Shown: positions 1,362 through 63,337 of the stretch, one piece after another
Numbering within the stretch: position 1 is the stretch's first letter
Layout: each line of letters begins with the position of its first letter
Sequence record: OQ025076.1
Origin: Escherichia phage vB_EcoP_YF01
Reading direction: 5' to 3' (one strand)
Length of the DNA stretch: 64,000 bases
The notes under the pieces: model-generated
What the model saw: the letters and a program-made list of their open reading frames with translations, nothing else
Told to the model about the DNA's origin: nothing
Database searches by the model: none
Made by a program: the position numbers and the translations under genes

Positions 1362-1853
1362 ATGGATAACGTCGCATTGCCACCTGTACAACTAAACTTA
1401 AGCCCAGCTGGAATGGAATTCATCATGAAGCATGAGGGTATGAGAACAAAGGCTTATAAAGATTCCGCGGGTATCTGGACGATATGTGTAGGGGCTACGC
1501 GCGATATGAATGGTTATCCGGTTAGACAAGGATTAACGTATTCTATAGAGGATTGTCTAGCTCTGCTAGATAGAGACACACAAGACTCTGTTCGTGCTAC
1601 TCAGAAGAACATAAAGGTTCCTTTACTAGTTCATGAGTTTGATGCACTCACTTCTTTCAACTTCAATGTTGGCAGTGGGGCTTTGAGCACATCTAAGTTA
1701 AGGAAGGTAATCAATGGAGATGTTAAGGGGGATGTTTATTCCGAATTTCTTCGTTGGGATAAAATAACGGTCAAGGGAGAGAAGCAGAGAAGTCAGGGTC
1801 TTCATAATAGAAGAGTTGCAGAAGCTAATCTTTACACCGAAGGTAAATATTAA
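1362..1853 (+). CDS. Endolysin, GH24 (T4-type) lysozyme
   Basis: GGAGG SD; motif EGMRTKAYKDSAGIWTICVGAT and overall phage lysozyme-family pattern; 163 aa. Confidence 0.8.
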   Translation: MDNVALPPVQLNLSPAGMEFIMKHEGMRTKAYKDSAGIWTICVGATRDMNGYPVRQGLTYSIEDCLALLDRDTQDSVRATQKNIKVPLLVHEFDALTSFNFNVGSGALSTSKLRKVINGDVKGDVYSEFLRWDKITVKGEKQRSQGLHNRRVAEANLYTEGKY

Positions 1854-1865
1854 TGGAGGTGCCTT

Positions 1866-2669
1866 TTGGCTATCGAAACTAATGCGGTAGTTATTACCGA
1901 CTTAAACCCGCTCTATCCTAGAGACAGGGATTACATCTACGAAGGGGCGGCTCAAATCCGCCTCATTAAACAAACGTTACAGAACACATTCCCCAATGTT
2001 ACAGAACCAGTTGATATAGATTCTGACACCTTTAAGATTATGTCAGAGAAGCTCAAGTTTACTGGTGATTCAATGGATGTTGGTGGTCTTATGATCAAGA
2101 ACGTTACTCCGGGAACTGGTGACAAGGATGTTGTTACTAAAGGCCAGATGGAAGCGTTCATGAAGAACTGGATGGAAAACAAGGTATTCCGTATTGGTGC
2201 TTACTATATCACTGAAGAGGATGTTAACCCCGGTGATTCTATCTCCTTAGGGTTTGGCTCTTGGGCTAAAGTGACTGGTGTTATCATGGGTACTGGTGTA
2301 GTAAACCCTGATGGTTCTGTCCCTAATGCTCAGAGGGTTGAGTTCCAAGCAGGTGGTACTGGTGGTCGTGTCTTCAATACCATTCGAACTGAGAACGTAC
2401 CTTTGATGACAGTTAATGGCTCCAGCTTCTCTCTATCCAGTAACACTCACAGTCACAATATGGTGTTTGGTCGTGGAGATGCTAGTGGTCATAACAGCTC
2501 ACCAAACTGGTATAGCCCGGGTGGTGGTTACAGCCAGAGAACTGATAATGACACACATACTCATACAATCTCTGGTAGTGTAAGTCTTGGTCGTGATGAT
2601 ATCTCTCGTCAACCTATTAACACTTTGCCACCATTCAGAGCAGCTCACATTTGGAGACGTATTAGCTAA
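1866..2669 (+). CDS. Virion structural protein, tail fibre-like (His-rich C-terminus)
   Basis: TTG start preceded by GGAGG; C-terminal HSHN/HTHT motifs resembling metal-binding tips of phage fibres. Confidence 0.45.
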   Translation: MAIETNAVVITDLNPLYPRDRDYIYEGAAQIRLIKQTLQNTFPNVTEPVDIDSDTFKIMSEKLKFTGDSMDVGGLMIKNVTPGTGDKDVVTKGQMEAFMKNWMENKVFRIGAYYITEEDVNPGDSISLGFGSWAKVTGVIMGTGVVNPDGSVPNAQRVEFQAGGTGGRVFNTIRTENVPLMTVNGSSFSLSSNTHSHNMVFGRGDASGHNSSPNWYSPGGGYSQRTDNDTHTHTISGSVSLGRDDISRQPINTLPPFRAAHIWRRIS

Positions 2670-2678
2670 GGAGGAATT

Positions 2679-5600
2679 ATGGCGCTGTATCCAATAAAGT
2701 CACTAGGTGCTGTAGGCGTTATCGCTGATCAGGCTCCGACAGACTTAGCTCCTAATGCTTTCACTAATGCTATAAATGCTCGATTTGTTGAGCAGAGAGT
2801 ATTTAAGACGGGGGGCAATGCCCCTCTTTCTTATGTAGATGAAGATAAGGATTTAACCCCTCTGTCTTTCGTTTCTATGCCTTTCGATTATTATAGCGCA
2901 GGTAATAGCTTTCTTGTTGTAGGTACGGATAAGAAGTTATATAAACTGACAGATGAAAGCTTGACTGATATTAGCCGTAAGGTTGCTACAGTCACTAAGA
3001 AGGCTTCTGCCTCAATTAAGATTTATCCAGTTGTTTCTCAAATCGTTCCTAAAGAATCAACTATTTCAATGAACTTCAATCAGACTAAGAATCTAGAAGT
3101 TTCTCTTCTTCCTGCTGATGCTAACAATACCGATCTTGTTTGGGAGGTTAGTAATTCATCTTATGGAAGTATTACAGTAGACCCTAGTGATTCTAAACTT
3201 GCTACTCTAACATCTTTTGAGAGAGAGGGTAATCTTGTAGTAACCATCTCTACTGCTGATGATTCTGTAGTGGCTCAGATTGCTGTGAACATTATAGACG
3301 GTGATTCGGGAATCTTCTTAAGTCAGGACACTGTTACTATCCGTAAAGGAGGGACTACCACCCTCACGGCTGTTACTGGCAAGACTCCTGTAACTTGGTC
3401 CAGCAGCAATGCTTCTATTGTATCTGTAACTCCTAACGCCAATTCCCTGACTGCTGTTATTACTGCTAATGGCGAGGGCAATGTAACAATCACTGCTGAC
3501 AATGGAACGAAGACTGCTTCTTGTGAGGTTGTTTCCATACCTCAGATTGACAGTATCACCTTAAGCCAGTCAGATGTGATAGTTAGTAGAGGTTCTCAGT
3601 ACATCTTAACCGCTACCATTTCTCCTGCTAACGCCCCTAATCAAAACATTACTTGGACCTCTTCTAATCCAAATATTGCAACAGTATCAGGGACTAGTAC
3701 ACAAGGGACAGTAAATGCTTTACTCGCTGGCTTTACTGAGATTACAGCTACCACTGAAGAAGGTAACAGGGTTGCTGTCTGTACTGTACGTGTAGATTTA
3801 GCTGGAAGGACGATGAGAACAAGTGCTATGGCATTTGCCGACCCTGCATCAGAACCAACGGAGACACAAGAGGAAGAAGTAGTAACCCCTATTGAAAGTG
3901 AAGAAGTGGTTTATTTTGCTGAGCCTAAGTCCAGTATTGATACGTCAGGAATGTACGAAGGTAATAGCTTCTACGACTATTCTAACGTAAATGATATTGA
4001 AGGTTTTGCAAGAGCTTCTTTACTAGCAACTCCTTTGTCATCCGTAACTTTAGATGTTGTCAGCGCCTCTCTCGATGTTGGTGAGGAAATAGTTATCACA
4101 GCTACAGCTTCTCCAGAAGGTGATTATTCTTATCAGTGGTCTGTTGATAAGACTGGTTATGTTTCTACAACTTCAGTTACTGGTAAATCTATCAAACTGG
4201 TTGCTCTTCGTAAAGGAGAGATTAACGTAACATGTACTGTTAGTCAGATGACTCAGAAGGATTATGATGCTTTTGATGATTACCCTTGGTATCACGCTGT
4301 TATCTCTAACTGTGCGGTTGCTACAACTCACTATGAAACTCCTCAGGTAAAAGAGTTCGAATCAGAATACTTTGTAGACCTTCCGGGGTGGGGTGAGCAA
4401 ACAGTTGTTGATAATGATGGAAACCCTTCAGTTAAGAAGTTTAACTGGAAATGTGAAAGAGTAAGATCTTTTAACAACCGTCTTTTTGCTCTGAATATGA
4501 GAGAGGCTAATGCTTCTGGTGTTACCACTAACTACCCGCTTCGTCTTCGTTGGTCTAACTTTGCCAATGAGAACAAGGCTCCTACACTGTGGGATGACTT
4601 TGCCTATGATCGAGTTGTGTCTTCGGACTTAGCTTCTAACATCGTAGGGCAGACTCAGGCTCTAGAGAATGGGTATGCTGGTTACATTGACTTAGCTGAC
4701 TCTAATGGTAGCTTGATTGATATCCTGCCTCTTAAAGATTACTTGTTCGTTTACACAGAGTTTGAAACGTATATTGGTTCTCCGACTAATAACACGTACC
4801 AACCTCTAATGTTCAAGAAGCTCTTTAACGACTCTGGTATCCTTGCTCCTGAGTGTGTGGTTGAAGTAGAAGGTAGCCACTTCGTAGTTACTCAGAACGA
4901 TGTAATCTTACACAACGGTGCAACCAAGAAGTCAATTGCATCTAACCGTGTTAAGAACATGTTGATTAACGAGGTGTGTCTGGTTAACCCTCTAGCAACT
5001 CGAGTACACTTGCATCAGGATAAGAAAGAAGTTTGGGTTCTGTACGTAGGTCCGGGAGAACCAAAAGAAAGCTTCGCTTGTACTAAAGCTGCTGTATGGA
5101 ATTATGAGTTTGATACTTGGTCTTTCCGTACTATCCCATATGCTCAGTGTATCGGTCTGGTTGATCCTCCTGTTTTAGAAAGAGGCCCAATCTGGTCTGA
5201 CTTCCAAGAAATCACTTGGGATGACCCATCTATTAAAGAACTCGTTTGGAGAAAGGATGCAACAAACTTTAGACAGAGGGTTACTATAGTAGGTTCATTC
5301 TTGAAGGGATTCTATCAAGTGGATGTAGGTGCTCTTGATTACTTCTATGACAGGCTAAATGATGTTGTTATAGAGAAGCCTCTGGAAATGAGGTTGGAGA
5401 GGACTGGTATAGATTTTGATAATGTGACGAATGAGTGGAATCAGAAGCATATTAACAGGTTCCGACCTCAGACAACTGGCTCAGGTACTTACATATTTGA
5501 AGCTGGTGGTAGTCAATTCTCGAATGAATATGGACACCCACACACATCTAAGACATATACGATCGGTGTTGACAGGCATGTCTCTGTGAGACTGAACCAT

Positions 5601-7753: not shown

Positions 7754-8536
7754 ATGGCAATTAAAATGGGTATTGAAGAACTAGACCCAATGGTTCAACA
7801 GGCTTCAAAGAAGTATGGAATACCAGCTGCTTTGATTCATGCTGTCATCCAAAGGGAATCTAGTGGACGTCCTACAGTGGCTTCCGGAACCGGTCCTGTA
7901 GGTTTAATGCAGATCAGTAAAGGGTTGGCTAAAGATTATGGTTATAAATTGGAAGATAGATTAGACCCAGCAAAGAATATTGACATGGGTGCTCGGTATA
8001 TCAGAGACAACCTAAAAGCTTTTAACGGTGACGTCAAGAAGGCAATGGTTGGTTACTCTGAAGGAATAGGTGGTGCTAAACAAATGTTTGCTGGTAAGAA
8101 AGGGTTTACTCCTCAAGCTCTTGACTCAATGAACAACAAACACTTCCTCCCGTTCTATGGCGATGCAGCTTCTCAGATTGCTAATCCTATTGGTGCTTTG
8201 CAAGCTGTCCAACCAGTTAACCAGTTTAATCCTGATACGCTGGATAGGGAGAAGGCTGCTCAAGCTCCTACTCAAGCTGAAATTGCTGCTTCTAAGACAG
8301 GTGCTTTAGGTGGCAACCCAGTAGAATTTTACTCTGATGAAGTTCAAGAAGGAGAAGACCAGAAGCCTCAGCAGAATTTTGGTAATGCAGTATTAGGAGT
8401 AGCTGCTATGCTTGCTGGTAAACCTCCTACCTCTCAAACAGTTCAGAGAGTGAGCACACCTCATGCAGCAGGTTCTCAGTACAGCCCACAAACACAAGCA
8501 GTGCTTAGACGTTTGGCTAGCATTGGTATTAAGTAA
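7754..8536 (+). CDS. Lytic transglycosylase (SLT domain) virion protein
   Basis: AAGGAG SD; motif IQRESSGRPTVASGTGPVGLMQIS (catalytic E-S plus GLMQ). Confidence 0.7.
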   Translation: MAIKMGIEELDPMVQQASKKYGIPAALIHAVIQRESSGRPTVASGTGPVGLMQISKGLAKDYGYKLEDRLDPAKNIDMGARYIRDNLKAFNGDVKKAMVGYSEGIGGAKQMFAGKKGFTPQALDSMNNKHFLPFYGDAASQIANPIGALQAVQPVNQFNPDTLDREKAAQAPTQAEIAASKTGALGGNPVEFYSDEVQEGEDQKPQQNFGNAVLGVAAMLAGKPPTSQTVQRVSTPHAAGSQYSPQTQAVLRRLASIGIK

Positions 8537-53250: not shown

Positions 53251-53326
53251 TGGCCGGGACGGAAGGATTTGAACCCTCGTAAAGCGAGTTAGAAGCTCGC
53301 TGCCTTATCCACTAGACTACGCCCCG
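53251..53326 (-). tRNA. tRNA-Arg (anticodon UCU)
   Basis: 76 nt folded by hand: 7-bp acceptor stem (one G-U), D arm GUCU/AGGC, anticodon stem GCGAG/CUCGC with loop CUUCUAA (anticodon UCU), T arm GAGGG-UUCAAAU-CCUUC, discriminator G, encoded CCA. Confidence 0.85.
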
Positions 53327-54779: not shown

Positions 54780-54808
54780 ACAACAAAGGCCACCCAAAGG
54801 CAGCCTTT
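54780..54808 (-). terminator. Terminator-like hairpin (minus strand)
   Basis: GGCUGCC-UUUG-GGUGGCC hairpin followed by U-rich tract. Confidence 0.4.
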
Positions 54809-55797: not shown

Positions 55798-56058
55798 TTA
55801 ATCCACCTTATTGGTAAGCCGAGCATTGCTGACCTTCTTGATGACTGTATTACCTTCATCCGTTGCAATAACGCCACAGGAAAGATTGATATAACTTCTC
55901 TTGTCTGTTGTCCCAAACTTCTGACTAGATAACATATAGTAATTCTCCCCATCCAGAGGGAACTGGAATACATCACCTGATTCTAAATCCCCAAGAGTTA
56001 AAACCTTTGGGGCGTTGTTCATATCAATTATCACTGTTAATCTCCTGCTGCTTAGCAA
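55798..56058 (-). CDS. Small early protein, paralog family member 7
   Basis: Pattern LTLGDLESGDVFQF...YYML...INLSCG. Confidence 0.45.
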   Translation of the reverse strand: MLSSRRLTVIIDMNNAPKVLTLGDLESGDVFQFPLDGENYYMLSSQKFGTTDKRSYINLSCGVIATDEGNTVIKKVSNARLTNKVD

Positions 56059-56320
56059 TAGCTACTCGCAAGTCTTCATTAGCACGAGCAAGGCGTAACA
56101 CTTCGTGGTTGAGGCTCTGAAGACGCTTGTTTCTGTCCTCAACTTGCATAATAAGATCGTTGAGTGTTACTTTAACTTTCTCATTATACATCTCATCCAC
56201 TCGAACTAGGGATTTATACATTCTCTCCCAGCTTGCTGCTTTGTTTCTTAGAACAATGAATCCTAGAACGCTGATAGTTAAACAGCTTACAAAAAGGAAT
56301 TTATATACTTCTAAAGTCAT
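56024..56320 (-). CDS. Membrane-anchored coiled-coil protein
   Basis: N-terminal TM FLFVSCLTISVLGFIVL then charged helical region. Confidence 0.45.
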   Translation of the reverse strand: MTLEVYKFLFVSCLTISVLGFIVLRNKAASWERMYKSLVRVDEMYNEKVKVTLNDLIMQVEDRNKRLQSLNHEVLRLARANEDLRVAIAKQQEINSDN

Positions 56321-56519
56321 ATTATTTACCCTTTATCAGAGATTAAAAGTAATATTATTTAAGTAAGTTATATTTAGTAAACTTATTTTCTAAGAAATTT
56401 TCAAAGGGTCTATATACAGAGCATTACCCATAGTCCCAGAATACTACCATCTTTTTCAATAAATTTACTAAGTGGTTGGTTTATAAAGGAATTTAGTTTG
56501 TCAAATCTGGCACTAGTGA

Positions 56520-56909
56520 TTATTCCCTAGAGCTGTTATCGAACACTAAATCACCACAATACATAGGATTGGCATACCATTTTGGCACCCCTTCGCTCTT
56601 ACTCTGAAAGTAAGTCCCACTGTACAGCGGAACATAATTCTTCTTAAGGGCACGTTTAGCAAGTCGCTCGCTTTCTCCAATGGCTTGCTTAGTCATCGGA
56701 TTTTTATCACGAATCAGCTTTACATAACGTTTATAAGGTTTCTCCTGTTTTAATAGTACCGGAATCCACTCAAACTGGTTCTTTTGTCTTATCACCTGTT
56801 CAGCGGTCAGTTTTCGTTGGGCCATTCTATTTATCACGGTATCCGCAACCATAGCTTTACATGCGGTTGGCTGATTCCCTGCCTCATAATAAATAGTCAA
56901 TGTCAACAT
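56520..56909 (-). CDS. Cell-wall hydrolase, SleB/CwlJ-like (Hydrolase_2 family)
   Basis: N-terminal signature LTIYYEAGNQPTACKAMVADTVINRMA resembling the SleB-family YYEA...AV..VVLNR motif. Confidence 0.55.
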   Translation of the reverse strand: MLTLTIYYEAGNQPTACKAMVADTVINRMAQRKLTAEQVIRQKNQFEWIPVLLKQEKPYKRYVKLIRDKNPMTKQAIGESERLAKRALKKNYVPLYSGTYFQSKSEGVPKWYANPMYCGDLVFDNSSRE

Positions 56910-56956
56910 TAGCTGGGCCGTTGTTATCAGAACTTGCTACCTCCTGTTTTACGGGC

Positions 56957-56984
56957 ATAAAAAAGCCCCAGCCGTAGCCGGGGC
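56957..56984 (-). terminator. Rho-independent terminator (minus strand)
   Basis: GCCCC-10nt-GGGGC hairpin followed by UUUUUUAU on the minus strand. Confidence 0.45.
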
Positions 56985-57043
56985 AAACCTGAAAGCAACA
57001 CATGACCGTTGCTATAAATACACTCGCAAATGCACTTACAGCA

Positions 57044-57069
57044 ACGCAAAAAGCCGCTCAAAGGCGGCT
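57044..57069 (-). terminator. Rho-independent terminator (minus strand)
   Basis: AGCCGC-CUUUGA-GCGGCU hairpin followed by UUUUUGCG. Confidence 0.5.
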
Positions 57070-57295
57070 ATGCGGAAGCTTCAAATGGGGAGAGGGAACG
57101 ACGCGACAGAAAGAGCGTCATAGTACTAAAAAGAGAGGCTATTGGAGAGGTTACTTATTGCCTTCCTTAATGCCTTGTTTTCTTGTTTAACCAAATCGTT
57201 TTCTTCTTGCAAGGATGCTACCAAATGAACCAGAACATCAACTACTGCATCACCTTGCCGCATCTCTCTGACTTTATTTAGAATCTCGGAATAAA

Positions 57296-57739
57296 TCATT
57301 TTACCCTCGCCTCTTTGATGGGATCAATGTATTTTTCAACGCCCCACTTGTGTTTACTGTCTGCGTAGAAAACATCAGGTGCGCACTGGCTTGTCTTAGG
57401 AAAAGCCTGCGGGTCTTTCGTGCTACCCTTAAACTTCTGTTTACCACGGGTGCGACCATTACAGAAGATTTCTAACTTCTTCTCCTCTTCTGTTTTTGCT
57501 CCCCCGCTCTTTAACAAAGAACGTTTATGATCGGCTAACAATAACGCATCAGCACGATGGACACGATGGCCTACACGTTTTGCCACACTGGAAGGAACAT
57601 GGGATTCAGCCTCAGCCTTTGCAGCACGACGTTTTAAACTACGCTTACTAACGTGATTAGTTGCCTTCGGTTTCTCTTTCTCTAGTTCAGAGATAGCAAA
57701 ACAACGCCCGCCCTTCATGCTGATTTTAGATTTAGCCAC
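57296..57739 (-). CDS. Hypothetical basic protein
   Basis: ORF in track; Lys/Arg-rich. Confidence 0.45.
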   Translation of the reverse strand: MAKSKISMKGGRCFAISELEKEKPKATNHVSKRSLKRRAAKAEAESHVPSSVAKRVGHRVHRADALLLADHKRSLLKSGGAKTEEEKKLEIFCNGRTRGKQKFKGSTKDPQAFPKTSQCAPDVFYADSKHKWGVEKYIDPIKEARVK

Positions 57740-57808
57740 AATCTTATTCCTTTTAGTGATAAGTTATATCGGGCAAGCCCATCAAGGCGATAGGCTTGAA
57801 CAAATAAC

Positions 57809-58504: not shown

Positions 58505-58540
58505 TGATAAAAGAAAAGGCGCTACCCGTTAAGATAGCGC
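58505..58540 (-). terminator. Rho-independent terminator (minus strand)
   Basis: GGCGCUA-10nt-UAGCGCC hairpin followed by UUUUCUUUUAU. Confidence 0.5.
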
Positions 58541-58565
58541 CTTATGTTTATTTAAATTGTCTTAC

Positions 58566-60386: not shown

Positions 60387-60415
60387 ATTATGAATCATGT
60401 TGTTTTCGCTGTCAA
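60387..60415 (-). promoter_or_regulatory. Sigma-70 consensus-like early promoter (minus strand)
   Basis: -35 TTGACA (60415..60410), 17-nt spacer, -10 CATAAT (60392..60387). Confidence 0.5.
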
Positions 60416-60877
60416 CCACTTTTTAATCTTTTTTCGTCGTTCCCGCTATTGGGAGGATATATCAATCAGCTTTATTTGATTGAAGACTAAGCGGTGATGC
60501 TTATCTTATGATTCATATTGTTAAAGAGCGGTTACTACATTTACAGCTTAACACATCGTGTTAGCTTGTCAAACTCTTTTTATCATCTTCTTTTAATTCC
60601 TTTCCCTTATCTCGCGTGAATCTATGCGAAAGGGCAAGATGATAAGTCTGATTTGTCTTTTAGGGAATCTAGTGCGCTTTCAAGCATTAATCTTTTGAAA
60701 GTATCGAACAAATAAGGCTTATTGATATTGCTTATTGTCCGCCTGCGTCACGTATGAATCAGGAATCAATTCTACCGATTAACTGAGCGCCTTATAGTAA
60801 TGACGTCGCCGCCACCCGTAAGACAAATCATATTTTTAAAGAGCGGGATGTTTTAAGTCATCGCTGACTGAGTGCTT

Positions 60878-60906
60878 ATTATGAATCAGGCTGTTTTCGG
60901 TGTCAA
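60878..60906 (-). promoter_or_regulatory. Sigma-70 consensus-like early promoter (minus strand)
   Basis: -35 TTGACA (60906..60901), 17-nt spacer, -10 CATAAT (60883..60878). Confidence 0.5.
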
Positions 60907-61084
60907 TACTCTTTTTAAGAATATTTTCACTTTCTAGCCTGATTTTTAAAGAGCGTAGCACTTTCATTGTGCGTCTTACTGTCGGTATTCCTACCGCTCC
61001 CCGTTGAAGCCTTTTACCGTGATGCTAATCACCTATCGAGGAGTTTTTACTACTTGTTGTTACTTACTGCTTACTACGGGATTC

Positions 61085-61112
61085 ATATTACTATACAGGA
61101 AAACCCTGTCAA
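61085..61112 (-). promoter_or_regulatory. Sigma-70 consensus-like early promoter (minus strand)
   Basis: -35 TTGACA (61112..61107), 16-nt spacer, -10 TAATAT; conserved block TAAATTCCTTTA 38 nt upstream. Confidence 0.45.
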
Positions 61113-63309: not shown

Positions 63310-63337
63310 ACTATATAATAAAGGAAAAACCTGTCAA
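63310..63337 (-). promoter_or_regulatory. Sigma-70 consensus-like early promoter (minus strand)
   Basis: -35 TTGACA (63337..63332), 16-nt spacer, -10 TATAGT; conserved block TAAATTCCTTTA 38 nt upstream, the same spacing as at 61085-61112. Confidence 0.5.

Follow-up and report, generated by a model that had tools for sequence, protein, structure and literature searches.

Described counterparts of the gene examined here are found in the 7-11-like phages (Grimontviridae), where Salmonella phage 7-11 gp111, Cronobacter phage GAP52_091 and homologs in Proteus and Aeromonas phages are small Hydrolase_2 proteins with 31-36% identity to it. These homologs are annotated as endolysins, annotations that are themselves predictions. 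Like the gene in the window, their genes belong to the non-structural arm and are closely preceded by a hairpin or terminator. The 7-11-like genes start at ATG behind a strong Shine-Dalgarno (SD) sequence and encode the only recognised endolysin of the phage; according to the literature, the holin-GH24 cassette of Kuravirus is missing from these phages. In Kuravirus, by contrast, a holin and a GH24 lysozyme are encoded among the late genes, and the hydrolase gene, with a putative CUG start, is placed behind tandem terminators. The SleB catalytic domains of Bacillus cereus (4F55) and Bacillus anthracis (4FET) and the single-domain CwlJ are more distant, with an identity of only 15-17%. Compared with SleB proper, the hydrolase lacks both the signal peptide and the N-terminal peptidoglycan-binding domain, its C-terminal motif reads GDLVF, and it is encoded by a phage of a Gram-negative host; the substrate of Bacillus SleB is the spore cortex, which E. 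coli does not have. The canonical holin-endolysin cassette is expressed late and has holin or spanin genes as neighbors, whereas the hydrolase gene shows neither property and belongs to the early block; what it does share with canonical endolysins is homology to the annotated endolysins of related phages. Early timing is unusual for an endolysin.

The window analyzed is a stretch of 64,000 nt from Escherichia phage vB_EcoP_YF01 (OQ025076.1), a Kuravirus sequence ∼98% identical to known coliphages; the coordinates of the features are listed in Table 1. An earlier note on this DNA had reported a SleB-like ORF, and the ORF is in place, with a 129-aa translation that opens with MLTLTIYYEAGNQPTACKAMVADTVINRMA as quoted there. 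As first written, the finding was already known and adds little, because the gene label and one terminator are public: the GenBank record of phage Paul (CPT_Paul_123) describes a "cell wall hydrolase (PF07486)" and carries a terminator feature at the T2 position, and UniProt entry A0A0B4N207 of phage SU10 is named "Cell wall hydrolase SleB domain-containing protein." The Paul and SU10 genes are the same gene as that in the window (98-99% identity). Both records begin it at ATG, unlike the CUG proposed here, and the records of SU7, KBNP1711, and EP335 place the start at an internal Met, which leaves a product of 101 aa. None of these five records mentions T1, a CUG start, or a structured RNA. 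Three points appear to be new: the upstream CUG start, the location of T2 within a conserved three-hairpin RNA, and the homology to the annotated endolysin of the 7-11-like phages.

Table 1. Features of the hydrolase locus and other muralytic genes in the window (T, terminator; HP, hairpin).
Feature	Position	Strand	Description
GH24 lysozyme	1362-1853	plus	PF00959 Phage_lysozyme, 111.7 bits
SLT protein	7754-8536	plus	PF01464 SLT, 83.5 bits
Hydrolase ORF, usual annotation	56520..56909	minus	129 aa, ATG start; ortholog of SU10 gp116 and phiEco32 gp117
Proposed true CDS	56520..56930	minus	136 codons; putative CUG start at 56930-56928; in-frame stop TAG upstream at 56939-56937
Shine-Dalgarno AGGAGG	56940..56945	minus	lies 9 nt before the CUG and 30 nt before the annotated ATG
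T2	56957..56984	minus	8-bp GC-rich stem, UACG loop, U6 tract; also the 3' hairpin of the three-hairpin RNA
HP1-HP2-T2 covariance-model match	56959..57041	minus	model R1, 107 bits; one copy per genome
HP2	56995..57012	minus	5-bp stem; nearly invariant 8-nt loop GGUCAUGU
HP1	57007..57046	minus	18 bp here; 12-bp core 57013-57040; U(G/A)CG tetraloop; four G.U pairs
T1	57044..57069	minus	6-bp stem, 6-nt loop, UUUUUG; predicted to terminate the first early transcription unit; abuts HP1
Conserved motif (C/T)A(A/G)(C/G)TACT(A/G)TGACG(C/T)T with hairpin GACGC...GCGTC	57100..57128	minus	start of the intergenic region

The family assignment that the note had drawn from the first residues is borne out by profile searches. 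Pfam PF07486 (Hydrolase_2) matches residues 13-114 at 33.5 bits (E 6.9e-8) against a gathering cut-off of 27, a profile of the protein family matches the SleB chains 4f55 and 4fet (E 7e-16 and 2e-15, respectively), and the protein falls within the SleB catalytic-domain fold. The family sequence YYEAGNQP aligns to YGESRGEP of both SleB chains. The Glu of the Y-x-E motif on helix 1 (E9 in the 129-aa form and E16 in the 136-aa form) is invariant among 21 homologs and is aligned with the Glu of YGESRGEP. In the SleB structures described by Li and by Jing in 2012, the helix-1 Glu is said to be the catalytic residue. SleB activity requires the catalytic Glu (PMC12331253), and a Type VI secretion system effector of SleB fold shows Glu-dependent toxicity to E. 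coli (PMC11148199). The C-terminal family motif G-x-H-x-F-Y is represented in the hydrolase by GDLVF, a His to Leu replacement. The model of the 129-aa protein has a pLDDT of 94. The 136-aa protein consists of the catalytic domain alone, an architecture that is CwlJ-like rather than SleB-like. No signal peptide, membrane segment, SAR-like segment, or lipobox was found in the hydrolase (maximum Kyte-Doolittle mean over 19 residues, 0.61); an N-terminal SAR or signal-anchor was ruled out by hydrophobicity, and the segment in question is helix 1 of the fold. The gene encodes the phiEco32-group member of a single-domain type of the SleB/CwlJ family, predicted to cleave glycan strands, presumably as a lytic transglycosylase.

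A word-indexed protein search returned close relatives only; by tblastn the protein was found in 127 phage records, 118 of which cover at least 80% of its length. Across three genera the dN/dS ratio of the 136-codon frame is 0.09-0.2 with dS up to 0.95, and this frame is under strong purifying selection. These values bear on the idea that the gene is the decaying remnant of an ancestral endolysin, which became redundant after the holin-GH24 cassette was gained and was silenced by loss of its start and by the terminators. A non-canonical start, the His to Leu replacement, and the failure to detect the protein in SU10 proteomics are all compatible with decay, but a frame held at such dN/dS over three genera with dS near 1, the presence of the protein in so many phage records, the invariant Glu, and a CTG and SD that stay invariant instead of degenerating make that idea highly improbable. 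The gene is located ∼55 kb from the GH24 lysozyme gene, in the early block (SU10 CDS 69-125). At the level of domains, the PF00959 and PF01464 matches (Table 1) bear out the claim of a third muralytic activity remote from the lysis and virion genes.

The note had placed T2 ∼48 nt before the start codon. The position of T2 is right, but the ATG that was taken as the start is probably not the one used: the likely start is the CUG, with the U-tract of T2 ending 28 nt before it and the SD sequence lying between the two. The annotated ATG is not conserved and is replaced by CTT in EP335, SU7, and the contig L006, whereas the seven codons upstream of it show between-genera changes at synonymous third positions only. 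In the Kuravirus group the CTG and the SD-N9-CTG arrangement are invariant, and the SD is AGGAGG or AGGGGG in all sequences. In all four contigs examined from a related uncultured-phage clade (L088, L090, L101, and L102), TTG stands in the place of this codon, spaced 4 nt from the AGGAGG before it; in the three that were translated, the product is 136 aa long, as in the Kuravirus group. The Bas87 record begins the CDS at the same CTG. No canonical start is present in frame between the CTG and the TAG stop three codons upstream. Variable sites in this stretch are few: three are synonymous within the group (∼0.04 by chance) and four are synonymous in comparison to the UUG group. In the structure model the extended form lengthens helix 1 (the extended protein was modeled from 56933 and carries one extra N-terminal Val, which does not affect the conclusion). 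A 24-codon upstream ORF beginning at an ATG after T2 was considered and rejected; this ATG is missing in EP335 and the in-frame changes are non-synonymous.

The alternative, translation from the annotated AUG or from an adjacent UUG to yield 128-129 aa, with the upstream conservation reflecting an mRNA leader structure, seems unlikely to us. Most gene callers choose the ATG at 56909, the TTG at 56906 is kept in all relatives, and the 129-aa form is modeled as a well-folded protein. However, no SD sequence is found within 25 nt of the ATG or TTG, and the annotation of Paul gives no ribosome-binding site; the ATG is lost in the three relatives named above; and the upstream codons, with their synonymous-only changes, encode a peptide (LITTAQL) homologous to LLTTAAL of the UUG-start relatives, with an ORF length of 136 codons in both groups. 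We concluded that translation probably begins at the CUG seven codons above the annotated ATG, a weak start that would give a 136-aa protein. In E. coli, CUG initiation reaches 1-2% of AUG initiation (bioRxiv 10.1101/063800). The AUU starts of E. coli infC and pcnB are comparable in that a near-cognate codon behind a good SD gives low translation and is conserved in relatives; the predicted CUG start differs from them in the codon itself and in having no known autoregulatory logic, and it is known here from sequence.

Next, we examined the terminators, both of which were identified by a consensus scan on the strand of the gene (minus). The note's two tandem hairpin and U-tract terminators upstream of the ORF were found where it had put them, and both are conserved. 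The T1 stem (57069..57052; AGCCGC-CTTTGA-GCGGCT) is followed by TTTTTG and has a predicted energy of -10.2 kcal/mol; the T2 stem (56984..56965; GCCCCGGC-TACG-GCTGGGGC) is followed by TTTTTTAT and has a predicted energy of -18.6 kcal/mol. Five terminator-like sites were counted in 4 kb, against 2.5 ± 1.4 in shuffled sequences, a number that is unremarkable by itself; it is conservation, not count, that sets T1 and T2 apart from chance sites. Both are retained across three genera, and the spacer holds two to four terminators in every relative examined. In T2, a G-C pair has been replaced by U-A through compensatory change, and the UACG loop by UUCG; both partners differ in two of the six counted pairs, with 100% of cells paired. 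The stem of T1 does not vary and is uninformative for covariation, and its loop varies in SU7 and L090. The conserved motif at the start of the intergenic region (Table 1) is terminator-like in SU7 and L090. As judged by sequence and conservation, T1 and T2 are real terminators.

Strong sigma70-like promoters were found only at 60415-61112 and 63337, which matches the SU10 promoter table. No sigma70-like promoter scoring at least 10/12 is present between 60387 and 48513, and the stretch from T2 to the gene does not accommodate a promoter. For the interval from T1 to T2 and the region above HP1, the candidates in the window (TTGCTG-18-TATTTA and GAGTGTATT) were rejected, as they are not conserved in EP335, SU7, or L090. 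The gene would thus lack a dedicated promoter and, placed directly behind both terminators, would be transcribed only by read-through of T1 and T2. The note's suggestion of attenuated or conditional expression is strengthened by the lack of a promoter between T2 and the gene, by the lack of a strong sigma70 promoter from the early promoters to the gene, and by the near-cognate CUG. It would be weakened by substantial or actively promoted read-through, which may occur because ∼45 downstream early genes must be transcribed as well. In SU10 proteomics, gp116 is not listed among the detected early proteins, which fits low abundance and equally no expression. On balance, low expression by read-through is likely.

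The reading we favor, and hold to be somewhat better than an even bet, is that this phiEco32-group SleB/CwlJ-type enzyme is kept scarce by its CUG start and by read-through and contributes to lysis as an accessory to the GH24 endolysin. RNA polymerase from the early promoters, ∼3.5-4 kb upstream, would read through T1 and T2 to produce the hydrolase mRNA, and the CUG start and read-through together would hold the enzyme at a low level. The hydrolase would stay in the cytoplasm, because it has no signal peptide or membrane segment, until the late holin opens the membrane, at which point it could reach the murein and aid the GH24 lysozyme. It is improbable, in our estimate, that the enzyme instead acts early, either in local murein remodeling for genome entry or exclusion of a second phage, or together with the 98-aa membrane-anchored coiled-coil protein encoded immediately downstream, with a trace amount as the functional dose. 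The gene does belong to the early block; the next gene encodes a protein with a conserved N-terminal membrane helix and a coiled coil in the window, L088, L090, and L101; and the Kuravirus group and the related uncultured-phage clade both retain a weak start, UUG or CUG, whereas 7-11-like homologs use ATG. Early action is opposed by the absence of any evident export route (no signal peptide, SAR-like segment, or lipobox), by the virion SLT protein, which already serves entry, and by the absence of the membrane partner beside the 7-11-type homologs.

The terminator-rich spacer upstream of the gene holds more than a terminator pair. T2 does not stand alone but makes up the 3' hairpin of a conserved RNA of ∼85 nt with three hairpins (HP1-HP2-T2), the structure of which is supported by strong covariation: 98.7% of cells are paired, 12 of 23 pairs have changed on both sides, none of 500 shuffles reached this level, and slid controls were ∼43% paired. 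In HP1, both partners differ in 5 of 12 core pairs, and pairing holds in 97.5% of cells. Because of its four G.U pairs, HP1 can form in the minus-strand RNA only; the RNAfold z-score is -3.55 for the minus strand vs. -1.39 for the plus strand. All five HP2 pairs have changed on both sides (10 sequences), and in SU7 and L006 the HP2 stem is wholly different while the loop is unchanged. These two relatives were excluded from model building and nevertheless scored 67 bits (SU7) and 63 bits (L006) with the covariance model. The model found no second copy in the 64-kb window, and a pattern scan of IMG/VR beyond the Kuravirus relatives gave only chance matches, which the model turned down. A target search with the HP2 loop (ACATGACC) gave three matches against 1.9 expected, none of them informative. 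A switch between an extended HP1 and HP2 as a general attenuator mechanism was rejected, since both hairpins coexist in SU7, L006, and L090. The RNA may act in transcript processing or stability, may be set free from read-through transcripts as a small RNA, or may modulate termination.

Hairpin RNAs that modulate termination are known from other phages, namely lambda nut/boxB and HK022 put. Like HP1-HP2-T2, these lie in early transcripts just upstream of a terminator, between early gene blocks; HP1-HP2-T2 resembles neither boxB nor put in sequence or structure, and it has no known partner protein. There is another possibility, to which we give a minority share of our confidence: T1 and T2 may mark the end of the immediate-early operon rather than tune the hydrolase, HP1-HP2-T2 may be a functional RNA (a small RNA, or a put/nut-like cis element by which host RNA polymerase gets past this terminator and later ones), and the hydrolase gene may simply be the first delayed-early gene. 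Beside the covariation, several observations agree with it. The element is separable from the hydrolase gene, as in phiEco32 a moron is inserted between T2 and the gene; KBNP1711 retains T2 with HP1 and HP2 replaced; further early-region terminators at 58543 and 54808 have no strong promoters behind them; and the 7-11 paper calls an antitermination strategy, which it leaves undefined, likely. On the other hand, no conserved sigma70 or gp36-type promoter (pattern sought, tAATGTAtA) was found upstream of HP1, for which T2 would be the downstream terminator, and HP1 is directly preceded by another GC-rich hairpin in every relative examined. The covariance model finds nothing in phages 7-11 and GAP52 or in those of Proteus and Aeromonas. 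An Rfam search at a permissive E-value returned only weak, terminator-driven small RNA look-alikes, led by MicX, whose 20.9 bits fall short of the cut-off of 75, and these were rejected. Furthermore, the element comes after T1 and cannot help the polymerase to pass that terminator. More speculative, and in our view doubtful, is the specific proposal that HP1 (with its UNCG loop), HP2, and T2 form a regulatory RNA of phiEco32-like phages that controls whether host RNA polymerase proceeds beyond the immediate-early operon to the ∼45-gene delayed-early block, by a change in termination or as a trans-acting small RNA, with the CUG-initiated hydrolase as the first gene under its control.

Because Kuraviruses are used in therapy and as model coliphages, it is of practical value to know whether a second functional endolysin is among their genes. 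Many deposited Kuravirus genomes appear to mis-start the gene, either at the non-conserved ATG or at an internal Met that cuts off the helix with the catalytic residue. A CUG start conserved among relatives would be a rare natural case in coliphages and a deliberate means of keeping a wall-degrading enzyme scarce. The covarying RNA element, apparently undescribed, sits where early transcription must stop or go on; if the gating proposal is true, this regulatory RNA would provide the antitermination strategy left undefined in the 7-11 paper.

The Hydrolase_2 profile matched the minus-strand product at 33.5 bits against a gathering cut-off of 27, which bears out the SleB-family membership proposed in the earlier note. 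The ORF that it described was recovered in the ORF listing as 129 aa beginning MLTLTIYYEAGNQ, and the GH24 lysozyme (Phage_lysozyme, 111.7 bits) and SLT gene (83.5 bits) were both found elsewhere in the window. In PHROGs the hydrolase falls into phrog_12974 (unknown function), and an endolysin family matches it less strongly. The subfamily is small and divergent: among 1.84 billion representative proteins searched, only 5 representatives had E < 1e-10, the relatives mostly being stand-alone proteins 130-145 aa long. A profile of 21 homologs matched the SleB catalytic domains 4f55 (E 7e-16) and 4fet (E 2e-15), pairing YYEAGNQP of the hydrolase with YGESRGEP. The Glu of the Y-x-E motif, the Arg of N-R and a Val are invariant in the 21-homolog alignment, and Q-F is almost so. 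The standout deviation from the Hydrolase_2 family is the C-terminal G-x-H-x-F-Y motif, which reads GDLVF in the window. No signal or membrane segment was found in the hydrolase (maximum KD 19-residue mean 0.61). We concluded that the protein almost certainly has the SleB fold and belongs to that family. SleB is a lytic transglycosylase that requires a catalytic glutamate (PMC12331253), and a T6SS effector with the SleB fold kills E. coli in a Glu-dependent manner (PMC11148199), so the fold is able to act on Gram-negative murein. The hydrolase is predicted, with good confidence, to be a catalytically competent enzyme cleaving glycan strands.

Window positions 55800-57800 are 96-98% identical to many Escherichia phages of Kuravirus (the phiEco32-like genus, Gordonclarkvirinae), e.g., EC.W2-6, SU10, and Paul. 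The Paul GenBank record labels the ortholog CPT_Paul_123 'cell wall hydrolase (PF07486)' and carries a 'terminator' feature at the position of the promoter-distal terminator T2; in UniProt the SU10 protein is entered as 'Cell wall hydrolase SleB domain-containing protein'. SU10 table S1 equates SU10 gp116 with phiEco32 gp117 and assigns no function. The finding of a hydrolase behind terminators, as first written, thus reproduces public annotation and is already known. A CUG start and a covarying three-hairpin RNA are, as far as we found, undescribed, and are modest, testable additions.

No Shine-Dalgarno (SD) sequence lies near the annotated ATG (56909), AGGAGG being 30 nt upstream; the Paul record gives neighbouring genes an RBS and this gene none. 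The ATG is replaced by CTT in EP335, SU7, and a further Kuravirus-group sequence (L006). The frame is open for seven codons 5' of the ATG (CTG ATA ACA ACG GCC CAG CTA) and is closed by a TAG three codons further upstream. Across three genera, 10 distinct Kuravirus-group sequences differ in the seven codons only by ACA/ACG, ACG/ACA, and GCC/GCA, all synonymous in the hydrolase frame and non-synonymous in the alternative frame, and the arrangement AGGAGG (or AGGGGG)-9 nt-CTG is invariant across the group. Four related uncultured phages (~70% protein identity) have TTG at the homologous codon, 4 nt after AGGAGG; their N-terminal peptides read MLTTAALL or MLNAATLL, compared with (M)ITTAQLM in the window, and three translated contigs give 136 aa, the length obtained from the window CTG. 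Across the 136 codons dN/dS is 0.09-0.2 (dS up to 0.95), so the gene is translated and under constraint. In a model with the extension, helix 1 is lengthened to residues 5-18 (pLDDT ~89 over the first ten residues). The record of BASEL phage Bas87 already begins the CDS at this CTG, and the records of SU7, KBNP1711, EP335, myPSH1131, MLP3, and EK010 begin a 101-aa CDS at an internal Met, losing the catalytic helix; the BFVD model of the truncated EP335 form superposes poorly on our model (TM 0.29). Comparative sequence evidence therefore makes CUG the probable start. Near-cognate codons such as CUG initiate at ~1-2% of AUG in E. coli, where confirmed non-canonical starts numbered only two (AUU) at the time of the study cited (bioRxiv 10.1101/063800).

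Coordinates of features in the window and in related phage sequences
Feature	Sequence	Position	Strand	Remark
Hydrolase, annotated ATG form	window	56520-56909	-	
Hydrolase, proposed CUG form	window	56930-56520	-	136 codons
AGGAGG	window	56945-56940	-	
T1	window	57044-57069	-	stem 57069-57052; consensus scan; predicted hairpin energy -10.2 kcal/mol
T2	window	56957-56984	-	stem 56984-56965; consensus scan; predicted hairpin energy -18.6 kcal/mol
HP1	window	57007-57046	-	
HP2	window	56995-57012	-	
Covariance-model match	window	56959-57041		107 bits
Conserved motif, spacer start	window	57100-57128	-	
Terminator-like hairpins	window	58516-58543; 54785-54808	-	strong
Spacer after hydrolase	window	56321-56519	-	conserved blocks ~56410-56430 and 56470-56500
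Membrane/coiled-coil gene	window	56024-56320	-	98 aa
tRNA-Arg	window	53251-53326	-	anticodon TCT
GH24 lysozyme	window	1362-1853		
SLT gene	window	7754-8536		
Extra gene	phiEco32 (L003)	2211-2890		
Hydrophobic ORF	KBNP1711 (L086)	2298-2420		40 aa
101-aa hydrolase annotation	L085	2567-2872		
101-aa hydrolase annotation	L086	2585-2890		
101-aa hydrolase annotation	L087	2567-2872		
101-aa hydrolase annotation	L103, L105, L106			

The two hairpin-plus-T-tract terminators reported upstream on the same strand, T1 and T2, were both recovered in a consensus scan. The number of terminator-like sites is within chance (5 vs 2.5 +/- 1.4), and the pair is credible because it is conserved: several such hairpins occupy this spacer in every relative examined (SU7 has four; of two uncultured phage contigs, L090 has three or four and L088 has two along with a 430-nt insert), and phage 7-11 has an annotated terminator ~37 nt upstream of its homolog. 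The SU10 authors list four terminators, T1 and T2 both missing, and put the early sigma70 promoters ahead of CDS125 and in the CDS120-CDS121 interval. Strong minus-strand promoter matches in the window lie at 63337, 61112, 60906, and 60415, and none of at least 10/12 was found from 60387 down to 48513; transcripts would therefore cross several early genes before meeting T1 and T2, passing first a 302-aa gene, next the terminator at 58543, then three or four small genes and a 57-aa ORF. Only the SD sequence occupies the 28 nt between the T2 U-tract and the CUG, leaving no room there for a promoter of the hydrolase's own. The evidence leans toward hydrolase expression only by terminator read-through, and therefore at a low level. 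The chief alternative has T1, the RNA element, and T2 controlling early transcription in general, with the hydrolase merely the next gene.

The early block holds further strong hairpins, and that at 58543 is kept in SU7 and L088 with a changed loop; since no strong sigma70-type promoters follow those at 58543 and 54808, early transcription has to get past several terminators. The motif (C/T)A(A/G)(C/G)TACT(A/G)TGACG(C/T)T, at the spacer's start, is kept in every clade, even in phages with only ~70% protein identity; it resembles neither sigma70 nor gp36 promoters, and it overlaps a hairpin that in SU7 and L090 forms a full terminator. The early region also encodes one tRNA-Arg, known in SU10 and Paul.

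The interval between T1 and T2 forms conserved hairpins rather than a neutral spacer. HP1 has 18 bp in the window, of which 12 make up a core; it includes four G.U pairs and is capped by a U(G/A)CG tetraloop. HP2, a 5-bp hairpin with loop GGUCAUGU, follows, and T2 is next. The minus-strand RNA is far more stably folded than its shuffles (z = -3.55), which is not so for the plus strand (z = -1.39). A covariance model built from six sequences, SU7 and L006 left out, found exactly one copy per genome and recovered SU7 (67 bits) and L006 (63 bits) despite their different stem sequences. When 10 distinct sequences were aligned to the model, 98.7% of cells were paired and 12/23 pairs showed two-sided changes, including 5/5 in HP2; fitting to the structure biases this alignment in its favour, and separate per-sequence MFE folds give the same hairpins. 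None of 500 shuffles matched the observed pairing and two-sided change, and sliding the partners by 1-3 columns left only 37-50% paired. The model found no element in 7-11, GAP52, or the Proteus and Aeromonas phages, nor was it present in other IMG/VR contigs matching its primary-sequence pattern, and no Rfam family matched. Another GC-rich hairpin always directly precedes HP1 and no conserved promoter was found ahead of it, so a place within read-through early transcripts is favoured over an independent small-RNA gene. The element is separable from the hydrolase: phiEco32 carries a moron and then another hairpin between T2 and the hydrolase, and KBNP1711 keeps T2, HP1 and HP2 being replaced there by a hydrophobic ORF.

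The phiEco32 insert, missing from the window, encodes a protein with a signal peptide and collagen-like G-x-x repeats whose C-terminus is a YadA-like anchor (...GVSYEW); the insert looks like a moron for an outer-membrane adhesin-like protein. The strongly hydrophobic KBNP1711 product (MESAISYLGEGGFFFLCGMLFGVIITLLILMIGFMEAVSR) is encoded directly upstream of T2 and the hydrolase. In the spacer after the hydrolase, two blocks (TTGACAAACTAAATTCCTTTATAAACCA and GGTAATGCTCTGTATATAGACC) are conserved even in L088 and L090, which are distant relatives; GGTAATGCTCTGTATATAGACC is one base off the core of the phiEco32 gp36 promoter consensus tAATGTAtA and may be a candidate promoter for downstream early genes, unlisted for phiEco32 or SU10. 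The product of the next gene has a membrane helix at the N-terminus (KD 19-residue mean 2.12) and a C-terminal coiled coil; the 'DNA helicase' label of PHROGs and several GenBank records is implausible, and the protein may be a partner of the i-spanin-like or holin-like type. This architecture recurs after the hydrolase in L088, L090, and L101 (94-103 aa, low sequence identity), and is not next to the homolog in 7-11-type phages.

In 7-11, GAP52, and the prolate podophages of Proteus and Aeromonas (Grimontviridae), the annotated endolysin is a homolog at 31-36% identity, and its gene starts at ATG behind a strong SD. The 7-11-type phages are stated in the literature to be without the Kuravirus late-gene holin and lysozyme. 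We tentatively propose that in Kuraviruses the SleB-type enzyme serves as an accessory endolysin, freed by the late holin; this step has the least support of all and is drawn from architecture and homology only. Most simply, the SleB-type enzyme would be the lineage's older lysis enzyme, to which Kuraviruses added a late holin-GH24 cassette, retaining the older enzyme under purifying selection at low expression.
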